Below, piece by piece: positions 20,340 through 31,277 of a stretch of DNA of 64,000 nt. Source of the stretch: Microgenomates group bacterium (GTDB lineage Bacteria; Patescibacteriota; Microgenomatia; UBA1400; MFAQ01); contig JBAQNH010000002.1 in NCBI GenBank assembly GCA_049303575.1, positions 572,541 through 636,540 of the forward strand, read 5' to 3'. Under the pieces are notes generated by a model. That model was not told the DNA's origin. It searched no databases and saw only the letters and a program-made list of their open reading frames with translations. The translations under genes were made by a program, and so were the position numbers. How positions within the stretch are numbered: position 1 is the first letter of the stretch; each line of letters opens with the position of its first letter.

Positions 20340-20511
20340 GCACACGTATATTTTAACTCAAAAAAATCTTGAGTGGCTAGAAGATGGGGTTTCGCCAGCC
20401 AGAAAATAGTTTAGTCTATCAACAAAAAAACCCGGTGATGATAGTCTCTCTAGCAAACCAAATAAAACACTATTTAGCTTGCGAGAGAACCCTTCAATTA
20501 CCTTACTAAGG

Positions 20512-20982
20512 TTAAACCTCCTTGTTTATTATGTGTACAAACTCGTTATTCTCCAGAATAATTTTAGGGAGAACAACAGGTTTAATATCTACACCTTCAA
20601 AATCATTTGGCTTTATTGCCACAAAACCCAAGTTATGTGAATTACCGGACTTTATCTCACTTAAATTCAAACTTATATCTATATCAACACGATAAACTAG
20701 TGCAAGTTCGTGATATTTTCCACCTCCCCCAGGTAGAACAAAAAAATTCTCAATTACAGCTACCAATTTTAAATCATTACATTTCAGTCCAATTTCCTCC
20801 ATCAGCTCTCTTTTTGCCGACTCAGAGGAGTCCTCATTAATACTTGCTTTTCCACCAACCGCAAATAAATATCCATCCCCAGATTTTTCAAAAATGTAAC
20901 CATCAGGTGTATTTAAAAGTACAACTACCCTATAATTAAAAACCGTATCTTCAACAACGAACTGTAAATCACCTTTTTGCAT
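20512..20982 (-). CDS. NUDIX hydrolase
   Basis: Nudix box GGKASINEDSSESAKRELMEEIGL (GX5EX7REUXEEXGU). Confidence 0.8.
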   Translation of the reverse strand: MQKGDLQFVVEDTVFNYRVVVLLNTPDGYIFEKSGDGYLFAVGGKASINEDSSESAKRELMEEIGLKCNDLKLVAVIENFFVLPGGGGKYHELALVYRVDIDISLNLSEIKSGNSHNLGFVAIKPNDFEGVDIKPVVLPKIILENNEFVHIINKEV

Positions 20983-21066
20983 GGTAATTGTAAGTATAAA
21001 ACAATCTAAATAAGAAAAGTGAACTAGATGATAAGTGTCAAAAGATGACAGAGTAAAGCATTAGTG

Positions 21067-21138
21067 AGCGGGTGAGGGGAGTCGGACCCCTTTTATCAGG
21101 TTGGAAACCTGGAGTAATAACCGTTATACGACACCCGC
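21067..21138 (-). tRNA. tRNA-like element resembling tRNA-Gly (anticodon TCC) with a non-canonical T-loop. Possible pseudo-tRNA or island attachment remnant
   Basis: Reverse complement has a perfect 7-bp acceptor GCGGGTG/CACCCGC, a D-loop with GG, an anticodon loop TTTCCAA (U33, A37), and T-stem AGGGG/CCCCT. The T-loop is TCCGACT (C instead of T at position 55), and there is one mismatch each in the D- and anticodon stems. Confidence 0.45.
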
Positions 21139-21169
21139 ATAACCCCTAAATTATATCAAACTTTCACGA

Positions 21170-21844
21170 TTATCCAGCTACAGCATCAACCCACCCAAGT
21201 ATACGTCTATGGAGTGATACTCCAAATTTTGTGTCACCATTTGCCAAAACACGCAATTGTACTGTACCGTGTGGCAATTTGTGTTTACTATGTTTCTCTT
21301 TTCTAATATCAATCTGTGTTTTTCCAAATTGTTTTATTGGAATTCCGGAAACACTTGACCAATATTCCATATCTTTGTCAATGTTGTTATCAGGATACGA
21401 GTGTAAAGCTAAAGACAGATTGTTCATGGTCAAACCAATTACCTCGACAAACCATTTGACTGCAATCTTAATTACTCTCGGATCAGAATTAGTAATTCTC
21501 ACAGACTCAATCATTTTTGTACCCTCACCTAGGTACAATCCTATTCCAAATAGCCACAAGTCTCTCGAAGAGATAACACCAATTTCCTTAATTGCAGATT
21601 TATGAATCTCTTTTATACTATCCAACTTTTTTTGATGCCTATTACTAGCGGACAAATTAGTTCCATTGGCGATTCGTTCTAAAGTAATCTTGTTAGGAGT
21701 GAAGGGAATCATTTTCAACCAATCGCTTAGTGTACTTCTTGGTAATTCAAGATCCTTGTGAATGTAAGAATAGGAAAATCCCTCTTTTCTCAATGCTATC
21801 GCTTTTTCTCTAAGAATTTTTCTATCCTGGACAGCCATATACAT
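21170..21844 (-). CDS. HTH-domain protein with a LAGLIDADG-like motif (possible free-standing homing-endonuclease-like or DNA-binding protein)
   Basis: N-terminal HTH-like segment (RKILREKAIALRKEGFSYSYIHKDLELPRSTLSDWL). Central WLFGIGLYLGEGTK resembles a LAGLIDADG-type motif. Family call is tentative. Confidence 0.4.
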   Translation of the reverse strand: MYMAVQDRKILREKAIALRKEGFSYSYIHKDLELPRSTLSDWLKMIPFTPNKITLERIANGTNLSASNRHQKKLDSIKEIHKSAIKEIGVISSRDLWLFGIGLYLGEGTKMIESVRITNSDPRVIKIAVKWFVEVIGLTMNNLSLALHSYPDNNIDKDMEYWSSVSGIPIKQFGKTQIDIRKEKHSKHKLPHGTVQLRVLANGDTKFGVSLHRRILGWVDAVAG

Positions 21845-22092
21845 CTAAGTATACCAAATAACGTGTACGTAATAGAGAATTACAACAATTATTAAAAACC
21901 TCCAGTTGTCGAGAGGAAGCGAACAATTACGAACCTCTCATGGAAGCTATTTTATCATGCTGGAAACCGGTTAATTTAGACTTCAAAAAAATACTCCTCA
22001 CAAAGGACAATATGACTACAGGCACTAATGAGGGTGGATTCTCTTATCTATATTGATTAGGGTGGTCATTCTTGAACCATTTAGAAAGTGGT

Positions 22093-22653
22093 CTACAGCC
22101 ATCTAGCCACTCCTCCATGATGCGAACAAGTACCTCTTCGACTCTGACTAAACGAATATGTCCCATCACCACACTTCGCTGATGCTCCCACAGGCACACC
22201 TCCGTCATTCGTATAGCTCGGTGACTGTACGGTCTGTCCAGCGGTGTTTACGTAAGTCTTATCATTTACAGTGACACTTTCTTTTGTCGGCGTTGGTGTC
22301 TTAGTGGGGGTTGGAGTAAGCGAGGGCGTAGTTGTACTTGTGGGTTCGAGGGTAATTGCAGATGTGGGTGACGTTGGTGAGATATTCAAACTACCCGACC
22401 CAACAGAATATTCTTCAGAAACAGGAGTGATCGTCGGAGAAATATTGGTAACCGAAGTTCCTTTGACATCTTTACCAGTCTCAGGAGCCGTAACTCCAAT
22501 CAACACGAACAAGGCGACTATAATTCCAATCATTACTAGTCCAAACTTCTTTCTACTTACACCGTCCTTCCTGACAATCCAAACAGGTTTAATCAGCCCT
22601 ATAGGTAGAGCAATTAAACTCAAGAAAAACAATAATCCAAATACAATAGCCAC
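22093..22653 (-). CDS. Membrane-anchored protein with Pro/Thr-rich linker and C-terminal DUF3761 domain
   Basis: N-terminal TM helices, PT-rich low-complexity region, C-terminal CGDGTYSFSQSRRGTCSHHGGV (DUF3761 signature). Confidence 0.6.
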   Translation of the reverse strand: MAIVFGLLFFLSLIALPIGLIKPVWIVRKDGVSRKKFGLVMIGIIVALFVLIGVTAPETGKDVKGTSVTNISPTITPVSEEYSVGSGSLNISPTSPTSAITLEPTSTTTPSLTPTPTKTPTPTKESVTVNDKTYVNTAGQTVQSPSYTNDGGVPVGASAKCGDGTYSFSQSRRGTCSHHGGVARWL

Positions 22654-22721
22654 AATGTCCCGTATTATAGACCAAACCGGTCCGTGGATTCAGCTCATTA
22701 CATTTCCACTTGAAAATAAAG

Positions 22722-23351
22722 CTAATGATTGGTTGTCTCCACAACCGGTCTTTGTCTCTTCTTCCCCGATAACTTTTTTACCAATACTCCTTTAGAAATA
22801 TCGAAATCTTTCATAACATCTCTTAAGGAGATTATAAGCGTACCCAGTTGTTCAATAGATTCAAAAGCAATTTCTTCAACAGGCCTTCCCCAATTTCCGC
22901 GTTTGGGATGCACCCACTGGTTCCCAAGATCGTATAAGTCGTTAAAAAGTTTTGCGCTGTTTTTATCAATAATCTTGTAACCCTTTTTATGGTTATAAAG
23001 AAAATCATTTACGATTTTTCTGAAATCTAAACTTTCGGCAAGCTGCTCAATGATCAATCTGTCCCCATCAATCTCCACCTCTTCATAAAAAATTTCACTT
23101 GCTAAATATTCAGCGATAGATCGACAAACCATAATCGTGGAAGCGAAGTAACCTAGAGAAAAAAGATCCTTTGCTTGATCAAAAAGGTTTACACTTGGAG
23201 TGTCGTACAAAATACCCCCAACCTTAATCCTTTTTATTCTTTTTCCAATTAAAGAAAGGTTTGGTTCGAATTTAGCCAATAAATTACTTGCCACAACATC
23301 GTCAGGTTCACTATTAGCAAACTGTGTATCTAAAGCCAAAAAGACATCCAT
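22722..23351 (-). CDS. Hypothetical protein (209 aa) immediately upstream of, and co-oriented with, the KAP NTPase
   Basis: 62-nt gap to the KAP gene on the same strand. No recognisable domain. Confidence 0.5.
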   Translation of the reverse strand: MDVFLALDTQFANSEPDDVVASNLLAKFEPNLSLIGKRIKRIKVGGILYDTPSVNLFDQAKDLFSLGYFASTIMVCRSIAEYLASEIFYEEVEIDGDRLIIEQLAESLDFRKIVNDFLYNHKKGYKIIDKNSAKLFNDLYDLGNQWVHPKRGNWGRPVEEIAFESIEQLGTLIISLRDVMKDFDISKGVLVKKLSGKKRQRPVVETTNH

Positions 23352-23412
23352 AAGGTATTTTATCCTACCGATGTGTTTACATTAGATATAAAAAATAACA
23401 CGCCTTTTGACA

Positions 23413-26019
23413 TTAAGAGGTTAAAGGAACATCCGTAGTTGAAATTTCCCATGAGGCAAAAATTAAATCTTTCTGCTCATCCAATTCAGGTTTTTTGAGA
23501 TCACTTACATTTTCCAGAAGGATTTTTCCATCCTCAATACTAAAATCTCTCCATAAATCATTTTCTTTGACTAAGAGGGAACTCGCTGCGATTCTCTTCA
23601 CGATGCTAATATTCTTATTAAGAAAAATTTCCACAAGCTTCTTAAACAATTCCATTTTCCCTCCTTTGTTCAAAAATGTTTTTACAGTCTCAGAAGTGAT
23701 TTGGTCAAAATTATCTTCATTGTCCAAAGAGTTATTTAAAAGGGATTTAAGTTTCTCGTTATCACCTTCTTCCATACTCAGATTACTTCTCTGAGAAATT
23801 ATATTTACAATTTCCGAAATACTCAGATTTGCTTCAAAAAGACTTGTCTTGCATGGCCCAAATAAACCATAATCTTCTAAAAACGACTTGTTTTGTGAAA
23901 CCCAATCAATATCCCTTTTTATCTTTACAAGACTAGGTATAGAGTCTAGGTATAGTCTAGCTAGGTTACCATCTCTCAAACCTTTATCATTCAACTGAGA
24001 AATATCCGATTTGTATTCCTCTAAAGCTTCAATTCCTTTTATACTTTGCTTAATAACATCGTTATTTCCATTTATACTTAGACAATTTTCCAAAGCAACT
24101 AAATCACGCGGTGTTTCAGAAAAAGCAATCGTTGCAATGTCCTGCAAACTATCTTTAATATCTATTTTAATATTGTCAGGAAGTTGCTTTATCATCTCCC
24201 ACAGATGCTCTCTATAGGTAGGTTCGTTACGGTAAAAATCAGATAAACCTTCTCTACTTTTTGCAAATAACGAATTCACGTATTGCTGTCTAGATAATAA
24301 CCTAAACTCGTCAGGAAACATGCCGACAATATCTAATTTAGATTTCCAATCTCCCAATCTCTCTGACCATTCTTGAGACTCTGCAGCTAATTTTAGACTC
24401 TCCAAAATAATATTTTGTCGCTCGTTTGGATCCTCAGTATTATCAAATTCTTTTAGTGCGGTATCAGCATATTCTTTATTTTTGTCAGGAGTTATTCCTC
24501 CTTTTGTCATCGTCTCTCCAAGTTTGTTAACTAGTTGACCTTGTTTAAGGTATTCTAAAAATTTAGAGGGGTCCGGTCCTAAAGAGCTGGGAAGACCAGT
24601 AGCGGCAGAAAAATAAAAATAATTAGCTGGTTCGTATATCGTAGTTCCTTCATCGTTTGTAAACTTAGGAGATTGCTTTAATAAATTTGCATATTTGACC
24701 ATTGCATTATCTTCACCAAGTAGTTTTATAACACTAATACCTATGGCTAAATCATCCCTCTTTGGATCCATTCTTAACATTTTTTCATGACCTACAATAG
24801 CCTCTGGATGTAAAACCAATTTTTCATACACGGGGAAAAAGAATTCTTCGATAGTCAATATCTTTGCAATAAGGTCAATGTGAAGTAGCATGGAGGAAAG
24901 TTCTTTTGCTACATTTTCCTCTTGGTCTAGAATCAATGTATTTTTCTGAGTGATAAGACTTTCTACATTAAAACGAACCTTGTCTATAAATCGAATTACA
25001 TTCCTTGGGTTTCTGGCAAATAAGTCATCGTTCATAAGTAGAAGCTTAAAATTTTCTTTAACTTCGTCTGAAGCAAAAACCAGTTTTGATTTTTTTAATT
25101 CGTCATCAACAAACGATCCGAATTGATTAGAAGTTGGATACGGCATTCTCCAATAAACATTAAAAAGTTTTTTTATATACTCACGGCCTTTTTCAAGTTT
25201 TTGTTCTGGAGACATTGTTTCAAGAAGCTGTAGATCTACAACTGCGGCTTTTTCCACAACAGTATGATCGGCCGTAACAACAAATGAACATTCTGGGTGC
25301 TGAAAAAACGTACGAAATGCGTCCATGACTATCTTAATGGTAGATGGAGTACATCTATCAAGATCGTCAATGAAAACAACAATTTTTCTCTTTCCCTTTA
25401 GTAGCATATAAAATCTATCTTCAAATTCTTCTGAAGTTGTAACCTTCGCATAGCTTTTTGTCGTTGTAATTTGCTTTAGCAGAGCAGGAATTACAAATAA
25501 AGTTATTATCCACAAAGAAAGTGCTGATAGAAACGGAATAGCAAAAAGTTTAGATATAAGTTCAAAAAGTAAATTTGGTATTCCCAAACCCAAAAAAACA
25601 GCAAAAGCAACCACAAACGTTGTAAAAATAATAAGCCAAGGAATTCTCTTAAGCAACTTCACCAAAGTATCTACAAGTTCACGCCACTCAACATTCGTCT
25701 TCGAAGTATCATAATACAGGTCATCCAGATCAACCTTTGACTGTACAGATTTTTTAACTTCCTTTAAAAACGCTTTTTTAATACTTACTTCGTCTTGAGA
25801 GTATTTCCAAGGATTGAATTTAATTATCGTAAATCCATTATCGGATAAGGGAGTTTCAATTCTGTTTAAAACGTCAGTTTTACCCTCTCCCCACCTACCA
25901 GAAATTGCAAAAACCATATTATCTCTTTCCACCTTCGTTTTTTTCGATTCCTTAGAATAGTGTTTAGCAATCTCTTCCGCTATTTTATTAGCATATAGTT
26001 GGTGATTTAGCCTATCCAT
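23413..26019 (-). CDS. KAP-family P-loop NTPase with transmembrane insert
   Basis: Walker A FAISGRWGEGKTDVL. Hydrophobic helices (IPWLIIFTTFVVAFAVFLGLGIP..., FLSALSLWIITLFVIPALL) are inserted between Walker A and Walker B (KIVVFIDDLDRC). This is the defining KAP architecture. Long alpha-helical C-terminal region. Confidence 0.85.
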   Translation of the reverse strand: MDRLNHQLYANKIAEEIAKHYSKESKKTKVERDNMVFAISGRWGEGKTDVLNRIETPLSDNGFTIIKFNPWKYSQDEVSIKKAFLKEVKKSVQSKVDLDDLYYDTSKTNVEWRELVDTLVKLLKRIPWLIIFTTFVVAFAVFLGLGIPNLLFELISKLFAIPFLSALSLWIITLFVIPALLKQITTTKSYAKVTTSEEFEDRFYMLLKGKRKIVVFIDDLDRCTPSTIKIVMDAFRTFFQHPECSFVVTADHTVVEKAAVVDLQLLETMSPEQKLEKGREYIKKLFNVYWRMPYPTSNQFGSFVDDELKKSKLVFASDEVKENFKLLLMNDDLFARNPRNVIRFIDKVRFNVESLITQKNTLILDQEENVAKELSSMLLHIDLIAKILTIEEFFFPVYEKLVLHPEAIVGHEKMLRMDPKRDDLAIGISVIKLLGEDNAMVKYANLLKQSPKFTNDEGTTIYEPANYFYFSAATGLPSSLGPDPSKFLEYLKQGQLVNKLGETMTKGGITPDKNKEYADTALKEFDNTEDPNERQNIILESLKLAAESQEWSERLGDWKSKLDIVGMFPDEFRLLSRQQYVNSLFAKSREGLSDFYRNEPTYREHLWEMIKQLPDNIKIDIKDSLQDIATIAFSETPRDLVALENCLSINGNNDVIKQSIKGIEALEEYKSDISQLNDKGLRDGNLARLYLDSIPSLVKIKRDIDWVSQNKSFLEDYGLFGPCKTSLFEANLSISEIVNIISQRSNLSMEEGDNEKLKSLLNNSLDNEDNFDQITSETVKTFLNKGGKMELFKKLVEIFLNKNISIVKRIAASSLLVKENDLWRDFSIEDGKILLENVSDLKKPELDEQKDLIFASWEISTTDVPLTS

Positions 26020-26149
26020 TATGAAGATATGATAACCCCAATTTATATAACATCAACACCTTAATCATTTTTCTTACAGTTTTATGCTCAAAACAGTCAA
26101 GCTAATACAAATGTTAAACTTAATAATCTCCAAACAATAAAGTAGCCGC

Positions 26150-26572
26150 ATGACAGTCAATATAATTACAAAATATAAATCTCCAAAATTCCAATTATGG
26201 TGCAAGTATTTCTTTGACAAGAGCAATAGAACTACATACGGTAACGCCGCACAATCCACCTTAAAAGCCTACAACACCACAAACTACCATAGCGCAAGCC
26301 AAATAGGATACGAGAACTTGAGAAAACTTGATTTCCTGAAGCCAGCAATAGCAGAAAGTGAAGGGTTTGGGATTGCTGAGTTTATCAAAGTAGCCATAGC
26401 TAAAGCTCTCAAAGGAAGTTACGCTGATTGGGAAAAACTAGGTATCCAACTTGGTTACTTTGAACCGGAGAAAAAGATACCTACCGTTGCGGTCCAAAAT
26501 AATTTTGACATGTCCACACTAAGGGAAACAGTAAGAAAGGCGAGAATTGATAGGGGATTGTCCGTGGTCTAA
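26150..26572 (+). CDS. Phage terminase small subunit-like protein (Terminase_2-type HTH); no large subunit adjacent
   Basis: KFQLWCKYFFDKSNRTTYGNAAQSTLKAYNTTNYHSASQIGYENLRKLDFLKPAIAE matches the conserved TerS N-terminal pattern (F..EY....NATQAAI.AGYS...A...G..LL....V..AI). Confidence 0.5.
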   Translation: MTVNIITKYKSPKFQLWCKYFFDKSNRTTYGNAAQSTLKAYNTTNYHSASQIGYENLRKLDFLKPAIAESEGFGIAEFIKVAIAKALKGSYADWEKLGIQLGYFEPEKKIPTVAVQNNFDMSTLRETVRKARIDRGLSVV

Positions 26573-26581
26573 TTTGACTCT

Positions 26582-27202
26582 CTACTTCGATAATTTACGC
26601 CTTTCAGTCAACCACAAGACAATATAGACACAAACCGAAATGAAAAACATAACGAGGACAACAGAACGATATTTGTGAAAAAGAAGTAGCATCAAAAAGA
26701 AGAGTGCCTTCTTAGGCATAGCCTGAGACTGTGTACTGCCCCTAAAAAAGCTCGTCATCGAATCGTAGAGGAATGTATCAACAAGCAACATACCGGCCAG
26801 AAATAGACAAGCGTACCCTAACCATTCTTTGTTAGTAGTTTCTTTCTTTAATTCCCGATTTGTTTTAATCACACTTATCGACTCGAATTTATTTTGTACG
26901 TATCCTTTTATCTTCTGGTAATTAAGAATGCACCAGAGGAATGAAATAATATACAACCAGACGCCAGATTCCGTCATCACATTTTCACTTTGTTGTTTAA
27001 GGAAATTGAAAACGGATTTGATGCCTATTGAAGCTGTGCTATACAAAGCACTCGAAGAAGACGCCAGGTTCACCAGAAACGCTGATAACCAGATCACGAA
27101 TAATACTTTAATCGCTAGAGTAAGTTTCAATTTTTTTATTGCGACTATCAAACATTGAAGATTATTTGTCATATTTGTTTCGGTGATTGAAAAAATATAC
27201 AA
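26582..27202 (-). CDS. Hypothetical multi-pass membrane protein
   Basis: Several hydrophobic segments. Co-oriented with the CAP-domain gene. Confidence 0.45.
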   Translation of the reverse strand: MYIFSITETNMTNNLQCLIVAIKKLKLTLAIKVLFVIWLSAFLVNLASSSSALYSTASIGIKSVFNFLKQQSENVMTESGVWLYIISFLWCILNYQKIKGYVQNKFESISVIKTNRELKKETTNKEWLGYACLFLAGMLLVDTFLYDSMTSFFRGSTQSQAMPKKALFFLMLLLFHKYRSVVLVMFFISVCVYIVLWLTERRKLSK

Positions 27203-27380
27203 AAGAAATCACTACACAGACAACAATCCACCTCGGAAGTAAACCATCCCAATTTTCATATTCAGGAGCAAGTATAGAGAGTATCAACATCGGAACCTGG
27301 ATACCAATAATACCCAGACCAACCCCAACTCCAATGGATTTGGGGAGTATGTGAATCAATCTAGAGATTATGTTTTTCAT
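27162..27380 (-). CDS. Small hypothetical membrane protein (72 aa)
   Basis: Two hydrophobic helices. Overlaps both neighbours by short stretches in an operon-like arrangement. Confidence 0.35.
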   Translation of the reverse strand: MKNIISRLIHILPKSIGVGVGLGIIGIQVPMLILSILAPEYENWDGLLPRWIVVCVVISFVYFFNHRNKYDK

Positions 27381-28173
27381 TTAATTGACGATTAGCAAAA
27401 TGTTCTACCGAAAATACGCCACACTGACCGATTCCTACTTCGGTATATGCAGGATCAAGAATGTTGTCTCGATGTTCCTCGCTGTTCATGTACGCCGTAG
27501 CGGTTCTTTTTGTACTGTTGTTGTAATCTCTAGCGATATTTTCACCAGCATGGTAATAGTCATACCCAGCCTTCTTAATAAAATACCAAGGTTGTTTTCC
27601 ATCAGGAGAGACATGTTCAAAGTAATTGTTGTCTCTCATGTCACACGCCTTGGCCTTTGCTGACTCGTCAAGAAGCTTGTTCTCAGTTAACGGCTTTAAC
27701 CCTACTGCGACACGCTCTTTGTTGATTAACCTAACCATGTCTGTGTAAGAAGAGATCTCGATATACGCCGGATCTATCTTGGTTACTCTGTAGTAGTAAT
27801 TTGATCCATAGAAACCTCCGAATAGCCCGATGGCTAACAAAATCATGCTCTTAGAAATCTTCCCAAATATTGTTTCCCTATCTACACTCTTCACTTTTTC
27901 AGAATGTGTTCCTAGGTTTCGTTTGTCTCGCCGATTTTTGTAAATGATATTAAGATAAAAGAATAGAACCAAGAAAGAAATAATACCTATAATAACAGTC
28001 GATATTAAGATGATATTTTGAATTTCTGTGTATGACCCTTCAGAACTGGCGGAAGAAACGAGAAGAAATAATATTACTGACACAAACCACACCAAAGTAA
28101 ATATCAAGGCCAATTTTGTTTGGTTTATAGCATGTTTTGCCATTACGAAAAGTATAGCTCTACATAATACCAA
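27361..28173 (-). CDS. CAP/SCP (PR-1-like, YkwD-type) domain protein with N-terminal TM anchor
   Basis: LINKERVAVGLKPLTENKLLDESAKAKACDM...HAGENIA...MNSEEHRDNILDPAYTEVGIGQCG...VEHF is the CAP domain signature. Confidence 0.7.
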   Translation of the reverse strand: MVLCRAILFVMAKHAINQTKLALIFTLVWFVSVILFLLVSSASSEGSYTEIQNIILISTVIIGIISFLVLFFYLNIIYKNRRDKRNLGTHSEKVKSVDRETIFGKISKSMILLAIGLFGGFYGSNYYYRVTKIDPAYIEISSYTDMVRLINKERVAVGLKPLTENKLLDESAKAKACDMRDNNYFEHVSPDGKQPWYFIKKAGYDYYHAGENIARDYNNSTKRTATAYMNSEEHRDNILDPAYTEVGIGQCGVFSVEHFANRQLNEKHNL

Positions 28174-28250
28174 TCACAAGCTCATTACTGTGCCTAAAAG
28201 AGTCATATAAAGACAACTTTTCTACAGCGTTTTGCTCAAAATCGCTTTAT

Positions 28251-28475
28251 ATGTCTTTTTACTTCACCAAGCAACTTCGAGAAAACATTGGCAAGAAAAT
28301 AAGAAGAGCCAGAAAAAATAAGGGGTTAAAACAAGTTGAAGTCGCTGTCGAGGCTGGAATGAGTCCTAGCTATTACGGCAAGATCGAAAGGGGCATTGTA
28401 AATCCTTCATTGGAAAAGCTTCACAAAATCATAAAATCACTTGGTGTGAAGTCATCAGACATTCTTCCTTTTTAA
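28251..28475 (+). CDS. XRE-family helix-turn-helix transcriptional regulator
   Basis: LRENIGKKIRRARKNKGLKQVEVAVEAGMSPSYYGKIERGIVNPSLEKLHKIIKSLGV is the canonical Cro/C1-type HTH. Divergent from the CAP/membrane operon. Confidence 0.75.
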   Translation: MSFYFTKQLRENIGKKIRRARKNKGLKQVEVAVEAGMSPSYYGKIERGIVNPSLEKLHKIIKSLGVKSSDILPF

Positions 28476-28488
28476 GGGGACAATCTCG

Positions 28489-29241
28489 ATGTATAGGAAA
28501 ATCAACACTAAGAAACAAAAGGGTGTTAATCTCGTGCCTTTCACAAAAGGCGAAGAAAGTTTATTGGGTCTTCTCGAAGAAGATAAACTATTTGGAATTG
28601 TTGTATTAAATATCAGAAATAAACTTGGAATTCCGGCAAAAGGTTTTACTTCTCCGAACAAAGATCGCGAAAACATCAAGAAGATAGAAACAAAAAAACT
28701 TATTAGAGCATCCCACACTCTTTGCAGACTATATAACCTACCTGTTTACTGGGCACCAACCTTTCACATCTACATACTACTAAACAAGACAATAAAAATC
28801 GATGAGTCGTTATATTACAAACCGATCACCATACGCAAACAAAATAACAAGGTGCTCTTGGAAATAAATGAAAGGATTTCAATTAAAGAATTAGGCAGAA
28901 TCTTACAGTTAAACAGCTCCGAATATAAAGACAAAACCAAAAACCTACCACAAAGACCAACCAAAGAAATCAAAAACCTAAAAATACGCAAAAAAATCTC
29001 TCAAGTGGTTTCAATTTTTAGAGATAATCCAAAACCTCAGCCCTACAAAAAAATTGCTGACTTTTTCAATGAAATACAAATTGACCAAGAAACTACCCTA
29101 GACACCTCTGACGAGTCAGTTCTTAGAGAATATGTGTCCAGAAACGACAAAGAACTAAACAAACAAACTGATGATAAGAAACTTGATCTACTTAAACTTG
29201 TTTTGGGTATACAAGATATAGAAGAAGTCATCAAAGATTAA
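28489..29241 (+). CDS. Hypothetical protein (250 aa) downstream of the XRE regulator
   Basis: Lys-rich. No domain recognised. Confidence 0.45.
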   Translation: MYRKINTKKQKGVNLVPFTKGEESLLGLLEEDKLFGIVVLNIRNKLGIPAKGFTSPNKDRENIKKIETKKLIRASHTLCRLYNLPVYWAPTFHIYILLNKTIKIDESLYYKPITIRKQNNKVLLEINERISIKELGRILQLNSSEYKDKTKNLPQRPTKEIKNLKIRKKISQVVSIFRDNPKPQPYKKIADFFNEIQIDQETTLDTSDESVLREYVSRNDKELNKQTDDKKLDLLKLVLGIQDIEEVIKD

Positions 29242-29523
29242 GCTCGCAACAAAAAAGAGTTACTTTTCTTGTTTTTCAAGTTTTTTCCTAAGCGCAATAA
29301 GCTAAGGAAGAATGGAAAGTTCGACTAATAAATCTCAAACAAGACCAGCGACAAGCGTTGAGATAGTCGATGTGTCTTCAAATTCCCCATTGTTAGATCT
29401 TATTACCTTAATGTCATCTGTCCAAACAAATACACCCGAAGCAAAGCAGAATGAAACTACAATTAGTGACGGAAAAGGCGGCCAGATATACTTATAGCGT
29501 TTTACCAACAAATGTCCATATAA

Positions 29524-31119
29524 TTGGGTCATATGGATGATGTCGAAAAAGAGATTGATTTTACCAAGCTTAGGTATGTACTGTACGCAAGGAAATCAAC
29601 CGTCGACGAATCCAGGCAAATACGTTCGATTCCAGATCAGATTAAAGAGTGTCTCGATTTAGCTCATAGAATTGGCATCAAAATTCAGTCTAAAGACATT
29701 CTGCAAGAAACCCAATCCGCGAAGAAACCTAACCAAAGACCTATCTTTAGAAAGATGCTTAATGACATCAAGAAGGGGTTATATGATGGCATTCTTGCAT
29801 GGAATCCTGATCGTCTAGCTAGAAACATGCTCGAGGGCGGAGAGATTATTGACTTAGTTGATCAAAAAATTATCAAGGATCTCAAGTTCGTAACACATCA
29901 CTTTACTGCAGATGCAAATGGGAAAATGCTTCTGGGTATGGCTTTTGTTCTGTCAAAACAATACTCTGATGACCTATCTCAAAAGGTGACCCGCGGAGTA
30001 AGAAATAGTTTCAAAGAAGGCAAAACCCCAACTCCTAAACATGGTTACCTTAACGAAGACAGACTATACAAGCCAGATGGAAATAGTTTTAAGCTACTAC
30101 AAGAAGGCTGGATAATGAGAAGCGAGGGAGTAGGTATTCAAGAAATAGCAGACTACCTAAACGCTAACGGATACACGAAACGAGTAAAACGAAACGGAAA
30201 AGAAATCAAAATAAAGAAACAGATACTTAGCAAAATCTTTAAAGACCCATTCTATTATGGTGTCTTGGTGCAAGCCCAGAAAGAAATTGACTTACGTGAT
30301 GTGTACGACTTTGAAGCAATGGTAACTGAGGATATTTATAACAAAGTACAGCAACTTTCTTTCCGTAGAATAAAACCTAATAAACAACATCACTCGGCCT
30401 TCTATCCACTGAAGGCACTAATTCGTTGCTCATTTTGTGGAAGCAACATGTATGTATCACCATCGTCTGGAAACACAAGAAGGTATCTTAATGCCAGGTG
30501 TGACAACAAGGATTGTCCTAGAAAAAAGAGGGGAATAAGAACAATTGTTGTTTTTAACTTTATTTACGACTTTCTAGAAAAAGGGTTAAATTTTACCGAA
30601 AAAGAATACAACGAATACTATTCAAAGATGGAAAAACTCTCAGATGTAAAAAGAGAAGAGCTAAATATCGAGATACACAGACATGAAGGCTCACTTAAGC
30701 AAATTGAGTATGATCTAAAAGAAACTTCACTTAACATAGTTAAACTGCCAAAAACCTCACCAGCATGGAAAATCAACAGTCAAGAGATTAACGAGTTAGC
30801 AGATCAGGTTCAGGAGTCAAAAGAGATAATCAAAAAACTCAAACAGAGGCTAACAAACCCGGAAGAAGACAAACTAAGCCTCGAAGACTTCTTGAACCTT
30901 TCAAAAAATGCGGGTGCTGTCGTCAAATCTGCAGACGCAGTAGTAAAAGATCAAATTTGCAGAATTATCTTTACGAACTTTTTTGTTGACGAAGAAAAAG
31001 TAACGTCTTATCAACTAAAAGAGCCTTTCGCTACCCTCATAAAACAACGCGAACTATCTCTATGTCGGGGTGGTGAGACTCGAACTCACGACCCCTGCGT
31101 CCCAAACGCAGTACTCTAG
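29524..31119 (+). CDS. Large serine recombinase (resolvase-domain integrase)
   Basis: N-terminal catalytic domain (LRYVLYARKSTVDES...AWNPDRLARN), recombinase domain, and zinc-ribbon CSFCGSNMYV...ARCDNKDCP. The last 18 codons (positions 31066-31119) are antisense to tRNA-Pro. Confidence 0.85.
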   Translation: MGHMDDVEKEIDFTKLRYVLYARKSTVDESRQIRSIPDQIKECLDLAHRIGIKIQSKDILQETQSAKKPNQRPIFRKMLNDIKKGLYDGILAWNPDRLARNMLEGGEIIDLVDQKIIKDLKFVTHHFTADANGKMLLGMAFVLSKQYSDDLSQKVTRGVRNSFKEGKTPTPKHGYLNEDRLYKPDGNSFKLLQEGWIMRSEGVGIQEIADYLNANGYTKRVKRNGKEIKIKKQILSKIFKDPFYYGVLVQAQKEIDLRDVYDFEAMVTEDIYNKVQQLSFRRIKPNKQHHSAFYPLKALIRCSFCGSNMYVSPSSGNTRRYLNARCDNKDCPRKKRGIRTIVVFNFIYDFLEKGLNFTEKEYNEYYSKMEKLSDVKREELNIEIHRHEGSLKQIEYDLKETSLNIVKLPKTSPAWKINSQEINELADQVQESKEIIKKLKQRLTNPEEDKLSLEDFLNLSKNAGAVVKSADAVVKDQICRIIFTNFFVDEEKVTSYQLKEPFATLIKQRELSLCRGGETRTHDPCVPNAVL

Positions 31120-31138
31120 CCATCTGAGCTACACCCCG
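31065..31138 (-). tRNA. tRNA-Pro (anticodon TGG)
   Basis: Reverse complement CGGGGTGTAGCTCAGATGGCTAGAGT... with C1:G72, anticodon stem CTGCG/CGCAG with loop TTTGGGA, T-arm GTGAGTTCGAGTCTCAC. Confidence 0.85.
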
Positions 31139-31200
31139 ATGCCTATATTTTACCTCAAATGATGTAAAATATATAAGTTCATTCAAGAACAATTGTGTAT

Positions 31201-31277
31201 GGTGGGTGTAGCTTAGCTGGCTAAAGCGCCTCCCTGTGGAGGAGGAGATCGCGGGTTCGAATCCCGTCATCCACCCA
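31201..31277 (+). tRNA. tRNA-His (anticodon GTG) with genomically encoded G-1
   Basis: G-GTGGGTG...CATCCAC-C acceptor with the extra 5' G and C73, anticodon stem CCTCC/GGAGG with loop CTGTGGA, T-loop TTCGAAT. Confidence 0.8.

Follow-up and report, generated by a model that had tools for sequence, protein, structure and literature searches.

A large serine integrase gene that overlaps tRNA-Pro at the edge of a probable integrative island in a Microgenomates group bacterium

The integrase gene and its overlap with tRNA-Pro

The DNA analyzed here, below called the window, is a stretch of 64,000 nucleotides (nt) from a Microgenomates group bacterium (assembly GCA_049303575.1, contig JBAQNH010000002.1, positions 572,541 to 636,540). 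It carries an open reading frame (ORF) for a large serine recombinase (LSR), an integrase, which runs in antisense direction into the gene for tRNA-Pro(tgg) and lies at one edge of an island of about 9 kb (island 1). Three features make up the overlap and its immediate surroundings:

29524-31119, plus strand: LSR (integrase) ORF, 531 amino acids (aa) as integrated, stop codon at 31117-31119
31064-31138, minus strand: tRNA-Pro(tgg), intact (ARAGORN)
31202-31276, plus strand: tRNA-His(gtg), divergent neighbour and part of the conserved chromosomal flank (ARAGORN)

The LSR frame contains no stop codon until 31119, as a first-pass annotation of the window, made from the letters alone, had already noted. 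The ORF and tRNA-Pro share 56 nt (31064-31119), i.e. residues 514-531 plus the stop codon. The first-pass annotation was right in describing these last 18 residues as encoded antisense to tRNA-Pro, but it had confined the overlap to the 3′ half of the tRNA, whereas about three quarters are covered. Its placement of the tRNA at 31065-31138 on the minus strand agrees with ARAGORN in strand and in the end at 31138 and is one base off at the other end (31064); tRNA-His does follow, after a spacer of 63 nt instead of 60 nt. tRNA-Pro(tgg) is the sole copy in the genome, whose inventory comprises 46 tRNAs and the transfer-messenger RNA (tmRNA), with every anticodon present once.

By its Pfam matches, the protein has the predicted architecture of an LSR: a catalytic domain with the serine motif (Resolvase, PF00239, E = 4e-21, residues 19-167), a Recombinase domain (PF07508, E = 2.2e-8) and a zinc ribbon (Zn_ribbon_recom, PF13408, E = 1.4e-5, 25.8 bits against a cut-off of 25.3). 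The residues Y21, R23 and S25 as well as C302, C305, C326 and C331 are invariant in an alignment with 35 homologues. The protein also matched the PHROG integrase family phrog_95 (5.3e-57) and the catalytic domains 3g13 and 3bvp. In the AF2 model, long paired helices (359-405 and 413-442) follow the zinc ribbon with pLDDT values of about 87-92; they may represent the coiled-coil motif that LSRs have as an insert in this domain. Matches to models of XisF and CcrB/CcrC were weak, all NCBIfam matches being far under the cut-offs, and no LSR of the phage collection was more than 29% identical to the window LSR. A database copy of the protein (P0001) is 528 aa long and 100% identical, which suggests that the true start is the ATG three codons into the ORF.

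Borders of island 1 and the empty site

The borders of island 1 were taken from empty sites, because no displaced tRNA fragment or long direct repeat marks its far end: a 30-nt piece of tRNA-Pro, with up to 3 mismatches allowed, occurs once in the window, and no long direct repeat or tRNA-derived repeat was found there that would mark the other end. An empty site was present in a genome of the same genus (G002, locus L005), which contains the same block of tRNA-Arg/Leu/Gly, the same 224-aa gene, tRNA-Pro and tRNA-His. No recombinase is found at this locus. The 224-aa ORF (L005:762-1436) ends up about 65 nt from tRNA-Pro, and the only ORFs that touch the tRNA are chance ones of 30-79 aa.

In a blastn comparison, L005:664-1481 aligned with window 21066-21886 (77% identity) and L005:1501-1711 with window 31063-31276, i.e. 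homology to the empty site extends up to window 21886/21911 and resumes from 31063. The left junction tracks the empty site through ...GTTGTCG and diverges thereafter, and the right junction rejoins it from TGTCGGGG... on. The three-way comparison of empty site, left junction and right junction thus delimits island 1 as window 21912-31062 (9,151 bp). Its DNA had no match in G002 or in a second genome, G008, and its G+C content is 0.33-0.38, compared with 0.40-0.46 in the flanks. The following features mark the two junctions and the left flank:

21066-21138, minus strand: tRNA-Gly(tcc) (ARAGORN), conserved flank outside the island, syntenic with G002 L005:662-736
21170-21844, minus strand: conserved chromosomal gene of 224 aa, the final gene before the island, with weak HTH matches only
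21907-21911, no strand: attL core TGTCG (three-way comparison), with the putative chromosomal B arm to its left and the putative P′ arm of the element to its right
31063-31067, no strand: attR core TGTCG (three-way comparison), with the putative P arm (last int codons) to its left and the putative B′ arm (tRNA body) to its right

On the tRNA strand, TGTCG takes in the final 2 bases of the acceptor stem of tRNA-Pro, its discriminator and 2 bases of the trailer. As the core lies at the last bases of the tRNA, the gene is uninterrupted: it is neither split nor duplicated in part, and only a 5-bp core at the discriminator is shared by the two junctions. The pair of tRNA-Pro and tRNA-His is conserved in relatives. 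The first-pass annotation had taken the overlap for a footprint of site-specific integration at a tRNA 3′ end and had proposed a comparison with an uninterrupted tRNA-Pro locus; the empty site in G002 bears this reading out, as this island-free relative has, at the locus, no recombinase and, apart from the short chance frames, no ORF that overlaps tRNA-Pro.

Two further serine integrases in the same genome

The genome (755,815 bp) has three LSR genes, and all of them run antisense into the 3′ end of a tRNA or tmRNA gene. One paralogue (L002:1489-3030, 513 aa, 52% identity) overlaps the oppositely oriented tmRNA gene, extending 21 nt into its 3′ end. Empty sites for its island were found in both G008 and G002 and could be aligned on both sides with a 10-nt overlap. 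In the three-way comparison, this island 2 measures 3,196 bp (G000:C2:142329-145524, locus L002) and has the 7-bp core GTGGAGA, which corresponds to the acceptor end of the tmRNA, the discriminator and the next base. Its genes encode the integrase, a 144-aa protein without family and a 197-aa Ltp-type surface lipoprotein in which the Ltp repeat of phage superinfection-exclusion lipoproteins occurs twice (PF07553, E = 9.7e-42). The very small island at the tmRNA gene is an independent second case in this genome.

The third LSR (28% identity) reads fully through tRNA-Glu(ctc). It is bracketed by a G+C-rich inverted repeat of 81 nt with 99% complementarity (L003:1315-1395 and L003:2921-3001). The arms correspond to G000:C2:361625-361705 and 363231-363311, with the 3′ end of tRNA-Glu(ctc) as the endpoint of the second one. 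The repeat has a third copy (91%), at C2:555097-555175, which is separated from the other tRNA-Glu gene by about 1 kb. The same element, with the same arrangement of inverted repeats, is carried by G008. Possibly, the third LSR and its inverted repeat form an integrase cassette that is invertible or self-contained.

Prevalence of the arrangement and background rate

LSR homologues (E <= 1e-20) were detected in about half of the genomes of the order (145 of 286). We surveyed the surroundings of such genes in two samples. The first consisted of 36 loci (the best loci for the window LSR, four public contigs and three own loci), and in 33 of these the integrase ORF overlapped or closely abutted the 3′ end of an antisense tRNA or tmRNA gene. 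The second sample comprised 30 loci, the best ones for the third LSR, and 26 of them showed such an overlap or close abutment. After two duplicates were dropped (L042 duplicates L025, and L082 covers the site of L003), the arrangement was present at 57 of 64 distinct loci. Among the seven misses, five (L028, L037, L090, L102 and L105) have the 3′ end of the gene within 70 nt of a contig end; the other two are a split gene (L043) and a locus with no tRNA within 1,467 nt (L109). The ORFs at L096 and L100 stop 76 and 13 nt, respectively, before the nearest listed tRNA.

As a control, all open frames of at least 300 codons in this genome (n = 312) were checked for an antisense tRNA or tmRNA gene no more than 100 nt from their end. 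Seven such frames were found, three of them being the LSRs, which leaves a non-LSR background of 4 in 309 (~1%). Only one of these four overlaps a tRNA, by 12 nt. The arrangement of LSR and tRNA genes is therefore not due to chance. A large group of integrases of the serine type follows this arrangement as a rule, and the window LSR is not a one-off. The 12-nt overlap, with tRNA-Val, belongs to the gene (L112; G000:C2:513100-516045, minus strand) for an alpha/beta hydrolase of secreted type, 980 aa long and carrying an Ig-like domain, and looks like ordinary tight packing.

In viral contigs, an alignment scan returned four loci, only one of them a fair relative (31% identity), which ends inside an antisense tRNA-Gly(gcc); a single-protein scan of viral contigs found no unintegrated copies.

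Target tRNAs and the integrase tree

Each locus was labeled with the first antisense tRNA from the end of its best alignment, which gave a target for 56 of 65 loci. Half of these were tRNA-Pro genes (tgg 14, ggg 13, cgg 1). The others were Glu and Gly (5 each), Gln (4), Lys, Ile, Arg and tmRNA (2 each), and Val, Tyr, Ser, Phe, Trp and Leu with a single locus each. In total, targets of 13 tRNA amino-acid identities plus tmRNA were found.

A quick maximum-likelihood tree was computed from 56 of the 65 sequences, after nine partial ones had been dropped and the last 20 residues trimmed. It consists of two clades (SH-aLRT 100). The clade with the window LSR targets nearly exclusively tRNA-Pro, with the Val, Gly and two tmRNA cases nested within it; the second clade is spread over a dozen tRNAs. 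In one genome, two clade-A integrases lie about 11 kb apart and point outward (G239:C4:95944-97521, minus strand, and 108376-109941, plus strand), the first of them ending in tRNA-Pro(tgg), which suggests two islands back to back.

C-terminal tails and the predicted circular form

A database search yielded 1,711 homologous proteins at E <= 1e-30 (8,000 candidates scored), and the C-termini of the top 120 were compared. In 103 of them, a junction signature x-Arg-Gly/Asp follows about 12 residues past the conserved ...LKEPF.TLLK.R, as expected from antisense reading into a tRNA that starts with CGGGG. The rest comprised two tails of tmRNA type (classed by script), three of ADER type, two classed as "other", and ten in which the anchor pattern is absent, most of these being alike by eye. 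Past the junction arginine, the 103 proteins with the signature continue for 5 residues in 73 cases, for 17 in 14 cases and otherwise for 2-40 residues. Length and sequence of the tail follow the target tRNA and not the integrase tree, and the conservation of the integrase sequence ends before the crossover. In the AF2 model of the window LSR, the last 49 residues (483-531) have pLDDT values below 50. Given this end of conservation, the variation of the tails and the low pLDDT, the tRNA-encoded tail appears to be a by-product of the junction and not a selected peptide.

Joining the right to the left end of the element in silico at the core gives the sequence that the int gene would have in a circular form. 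In this predicted circle, the int frame of island 1 continues for 47 codons and that of island 2 for 50 codons, which would give proteins of 562 and 560 aa, respectively. For island 1, the continuation corresponds to:

21913-22056, plus strand: continuation of the int frame in the predicted circle, 47 codons plus stop, by translation; coding status uncertain

At the level of the sequence, integration changes the C-terminus of the integrase. Evidence that the continuations are real coding sequence is weak: open runs as long as these were reached in 1,464 of 20,000 shuffles for island 1 and in 1,388 of 20,000 for island 2, i.e. in about 7% each. A long tail that starts at the same junction position and is not derived from a tRNA does occur in one database homologue, P0090 (554 aa), whose contig measures 41.8 kb. 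The island-1 tail showed no significant similarity to it in BLASTP (E = 0.26), and a database word search with the P0090 tail returned P0090 alone.

Integration model and alternative explanations

Taken together, the island, with a length of 9.15 kb, was very likely put at the 3′ end of tRNA-Pro(UGG) by its own LSR, encoded at the edge of the island, with attP inside the 3′ end of int. In this model, the LSR at the right edge would catalyze insertion of the element at the outermost 3′ bases of tRNA-Pro(UGG), a gene present in a single copy. attP would lie within the 3′ end of int, its P arm being formed by the last ~8 int codons and its P′ arm by the opposite end of the island; attB would consist of the acceptor/T-arm side of the tRNA (B′) and the tRNA 3′ trailer (B). 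The crossover, with a putative dinucleotide as its exact position, would take place in the 5-bp core TGTCG at the discriminator. Since the exchange would occur at the terminal bases of the tRNA, the gene would remain whole, only its trailer would be replaced, and no long duplication of the target would be needed. The integrated int frame, severed from the sequence that follows it in the circle, would run antisense through the tRNA to a chance stop at 31117-31119, and the overlap of LSR and tRNA would exist because attP lies inside the int 3′ end.

Several results weigh against this model or limit its precision. Island 1 has a single empty-site comparator, from another species and with 77% flank identity, and its core may therefore be off by 1-2 bases. 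Structural work on serine integrases reportedly describes a 5-bp shift between the arms of attB and attP. Such a register shift was undetected here, the best ungapped comparisons matching at 11-14 of ~31-35 positions with inconsistent offsets, and the att arms show no significant dyad symmetry. For the third LSR, an empty site was not found among eight same-genus genomes, where homology mostly stops at the tRNA, and its 81-nt inverted repeat means that it may be a different kind of element.

One alternative would be that there is no mobile element at all, i.e. that a resident recombinase lies beside the tRNA by chance or that the overlap results from an assembly or frameshift artefact, as the first-pass annotation had cautioned. 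Beyond the general frequency of tRNA-flanked variable regions, nothing speaks for it. The existence of empty sites, the absence of the island from G002 and G008, the recurrence of the same geometry at 57 of the 64 distinct loci in many independent assemblies and the ~1% background rate make it negligibly probable; in particular, no frameshift is required, because the homologues enter the tRNA in the same manner. Hardly more probable is dual coding, according to which the peptide read antisense to the tRNA (…RGGETRTHDPCVPNAVL) would be a selected, functional part of the integrase. Alignments of homologues do reach residues 527-531 at many tRNA-Pro loci, and the frame relative to the tRNA is kept within the clade, but such conservation is imposed by the tRNA sequence itself. 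The same peptide falls into a region predicted to be disordered and varies in length as described above, and near relatives that target tmRNA, tRNA-Val or tRNA-Gly have unrelated tails. The view of the tail as a by-product was also held by the authors who described the serine integrase DsiB of Dehalococcoides (PMC3146451).

A switch that depends on the state of integration has more in its favour, although we regard it as unlikely: the tail of the circular form would be swapped for the tRNA-encoded one, and any effect of this change would fall on the activity, stability or directionality of the integrase. Both mapped islands give open continuations of like length, and the tail of P0090 is of like length too, starts at the same junction and does not derive from a tRNA. 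The Dehalococcoides authors raised the same idea (PMC3146451), and in the phage Mx8 a changed 3′ end of int alters the behaviour of the integrase (PMC6070905). Against this stand the complete lack of conserved integrase sequence beyond the crossover, the frequency of open runs among the shuffles and the lack of detectable similarity between the tails; because of the latter two points, the switch is kept only as a rival to the by-product view. An equally doubtful and more far-reaching proposal would combine these elements into a large and as yet undescribed Patescibacteria-type radiation of serine integrases, which would use tRNA and tmRNA 3′ ends as attB (at least 13 identities plus tmRNA), whose int gene would span attP, and in which the difference between the two C-termini would help to decide which way recombination goes, with or without a separate directionality factor.

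Gene content of island 1 and its surroundings

Besides the integrase gene, island 1 contains the following features:

22093-22653, minus strand: DUF3761 protein, 186 aa (Pfam PF12587, E = 4.5e-24)
22722-23351, minus strand: ORF of 209 aa, no match in Pfam, PHROGs or PADLOC
23413-26019, minus strand: KAP-family P-loop NTPase, 868 aa (Pfam PF07693, E = 8.6e-31; PADLOC QatA, E = 9.3e-21, and PifA, E = 8.3e-18)
26150-26572 (plus strand), 26582-27202 (minus strand) and 27162-27380 (minus strand): three small ORFs from the ORF list, no family match in Pfam, PHROGs or PADLOC
27361-28173, minus strand: CAP/SCP-domain protein, 270 aa (Pfam PF00188, E = 1.4e-15; phrog_16914, E = 8.4e-26)
28251-28475, plus strand: XRE/HTH_3 regulator, 74 aa (Pfam PF01381, E = 1.2e-16; PHROG category transcriptional regulators and repressors)
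28489-29241, plus strand: ORF of 250 aa between regulator and int, no match in Pfam, PHROGs, NCBIfam or PADLOC

Several small membrane-like ORFs are also present. Searches of the island with Pfam and PHROGs found no virion, replication or conjugation genes, and none of its ORFs gave a second Resolvase-domain match or a ParB or Mom match; likewise, Pfam revealed no tyrosine integrase or second recombinase. By its gene content, island 1 resembles a small integrative island whose cargo is of defence type. The XRE/HTH_3 protein upstream of int is a candidate regulator of the integration module, and a directionality factor encoded by the 250-aa ORF is no more than a guess. The KAP NTPase gene has no recognisable Qat partners next to it and may be a stand-alone defence gene.

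Outside the island, the window contains about 700 bp (20365-21065) that are extra relative to G002, between tRNA-Leu(taa) and tRNA-Gly(tcc), with no recombinase nearby. This insertion includes an ORF for a 156-aa NUDIX-domain protein (20512-20982, minus strand). More generally, 15 of the 46 tRNA genes of the genome are found within 23 kb (window 14973-37941), and this region shows several breaks in synteny relative to related genomes.

Comparison with known systems

Integration at tRNA genes is customarily tied to tyrosine integrases. The first-pass annotation had called it much less documented for LSRs, a fair statement as long as it is not taken to mean undocumented. McMurdie et al. (2011, PMC3146451) described islands at the tmRNA gene (ssrA) of Dehalococcoides with a 540-aa serine integrase, DsiB. 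The 3′ end of its gene always overlaps att, and its reading frame stops only beyond the island border, even within the tmRNA gene, which is encoded on the other strand. The authors regarded the overlapped part as doubtfully functional and considered that full function may need the circular form. An overlap of int and att of the DsiB type at ssrA is thus already known (PMC3146451).

The islands described here resemble those of DsiB in having (i) an LSR at the edge with its 3′ end over the att site and a stop codon beyond the island; (ii) a single-copy, essential tRNA-like target; and (iii) a small to medium size, with cargo and without transfer genes. Island 2 even shares the tmRNA target, although its core measures 7 bp and sits at the 3′ end. 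Island 1, in contrast, targets a true tRNA (Pro), and the cores of 5-7 bp at the discriminator differ from the 20-bp direct repeat and the insertion in the T-loop reported for DsiB islands. Also, the second small serine recombinase DsiA and the ParB/Mom-like module of DsiB islands have no counterpart here (PMC3146451). The hosts are tiny-genome bacteria of Patescibacteria type, and the likeness to DsiB refers to its published description only, not to sequence. New with respect to DsiB are therefore the many true tRNA identities, the short core at the 3′ end, the lack of a DsiA module and the prevalence in tiny genomes.

Mx8 reportedly targets a tRNA gene. As in our case, the int ORFs of Mx8 (IntP/IntX) and of SSV from Sulfolobus extend across attP and hence the crossover (PMC6070905, PMC4383910); in Mx8, where attP lies inside int, integration creates a new 3′ end with altered behaviour (PMC6070905), and in SSV the gene is split. 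Both enzymes are tyrosine recombinases, for which long segments of identity rebuild the target, whereas the serine recombinases described here use a core of 5-7 bp. With the Islander class of tyrosine-integrase islands (PMC4383910), our islands share the targeting of the 3′ part of tRNA or tmRNA genes, the position of int beside an intact tRNA and a target that stays functional, but island 1 contains no tyrosine integrase and no displaced tRNA fragment at the far end.

In domain architecture and in the very short core, the integrases resemble LSRs of phages and of integrative conjugative or mobilizable elements (Bxb1, PhiC31, A118, TP901-1, CcrB, TnpX), and the window LSR matched the catalytic domains of the TP901-1 integrase and of a conjugative-transposon recombinase. 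According to a review of integrative mobilizable elements (PMC5704250), those with serine recombinases insert within protein genes and often disrupt them; unlike these, the elements described here would spare the RNA gene by a crossover at its last bases. The literature searched contained nothing relevant on serine integrases in Patescibacteria or the Candidate Phyla Radiation in connection with tRNA, where a tabulated mention elsewhere is possible, and nothing on the breadth of tRNA targeting by serine integrases. For the LSR survey by Durrant et al. (PMC10083194), the search counted no instance of the word "tRNA".

Implications

For annotation, a simple rule follows from the arrangement: the last codons of such int genes should be distrusted, and an island should be sought on the int side of the tRNA. 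The family, a natural set of serine integrases whose short attB sites lie in RNA genes of high conservation, would also be of practical interest for genome engineering. The cargo, i.e. the QatA/PifA-like KAP NTPase of island 1 and the Ltp-type lipoprotein of island 2, suggests that the islands move defence functions. Comparative mapping points to serine integrases that use the 3′ ends of tRNA and tmRNA genes as a rule, in a group of bacteria in which about half of the genomes carry such an integrase. It would also explain how islands are tolerated in genomes of 0.7-1.3 Mb with single-copy tRNAs, because a crossover at the discriminator leaves the tRNA whole.

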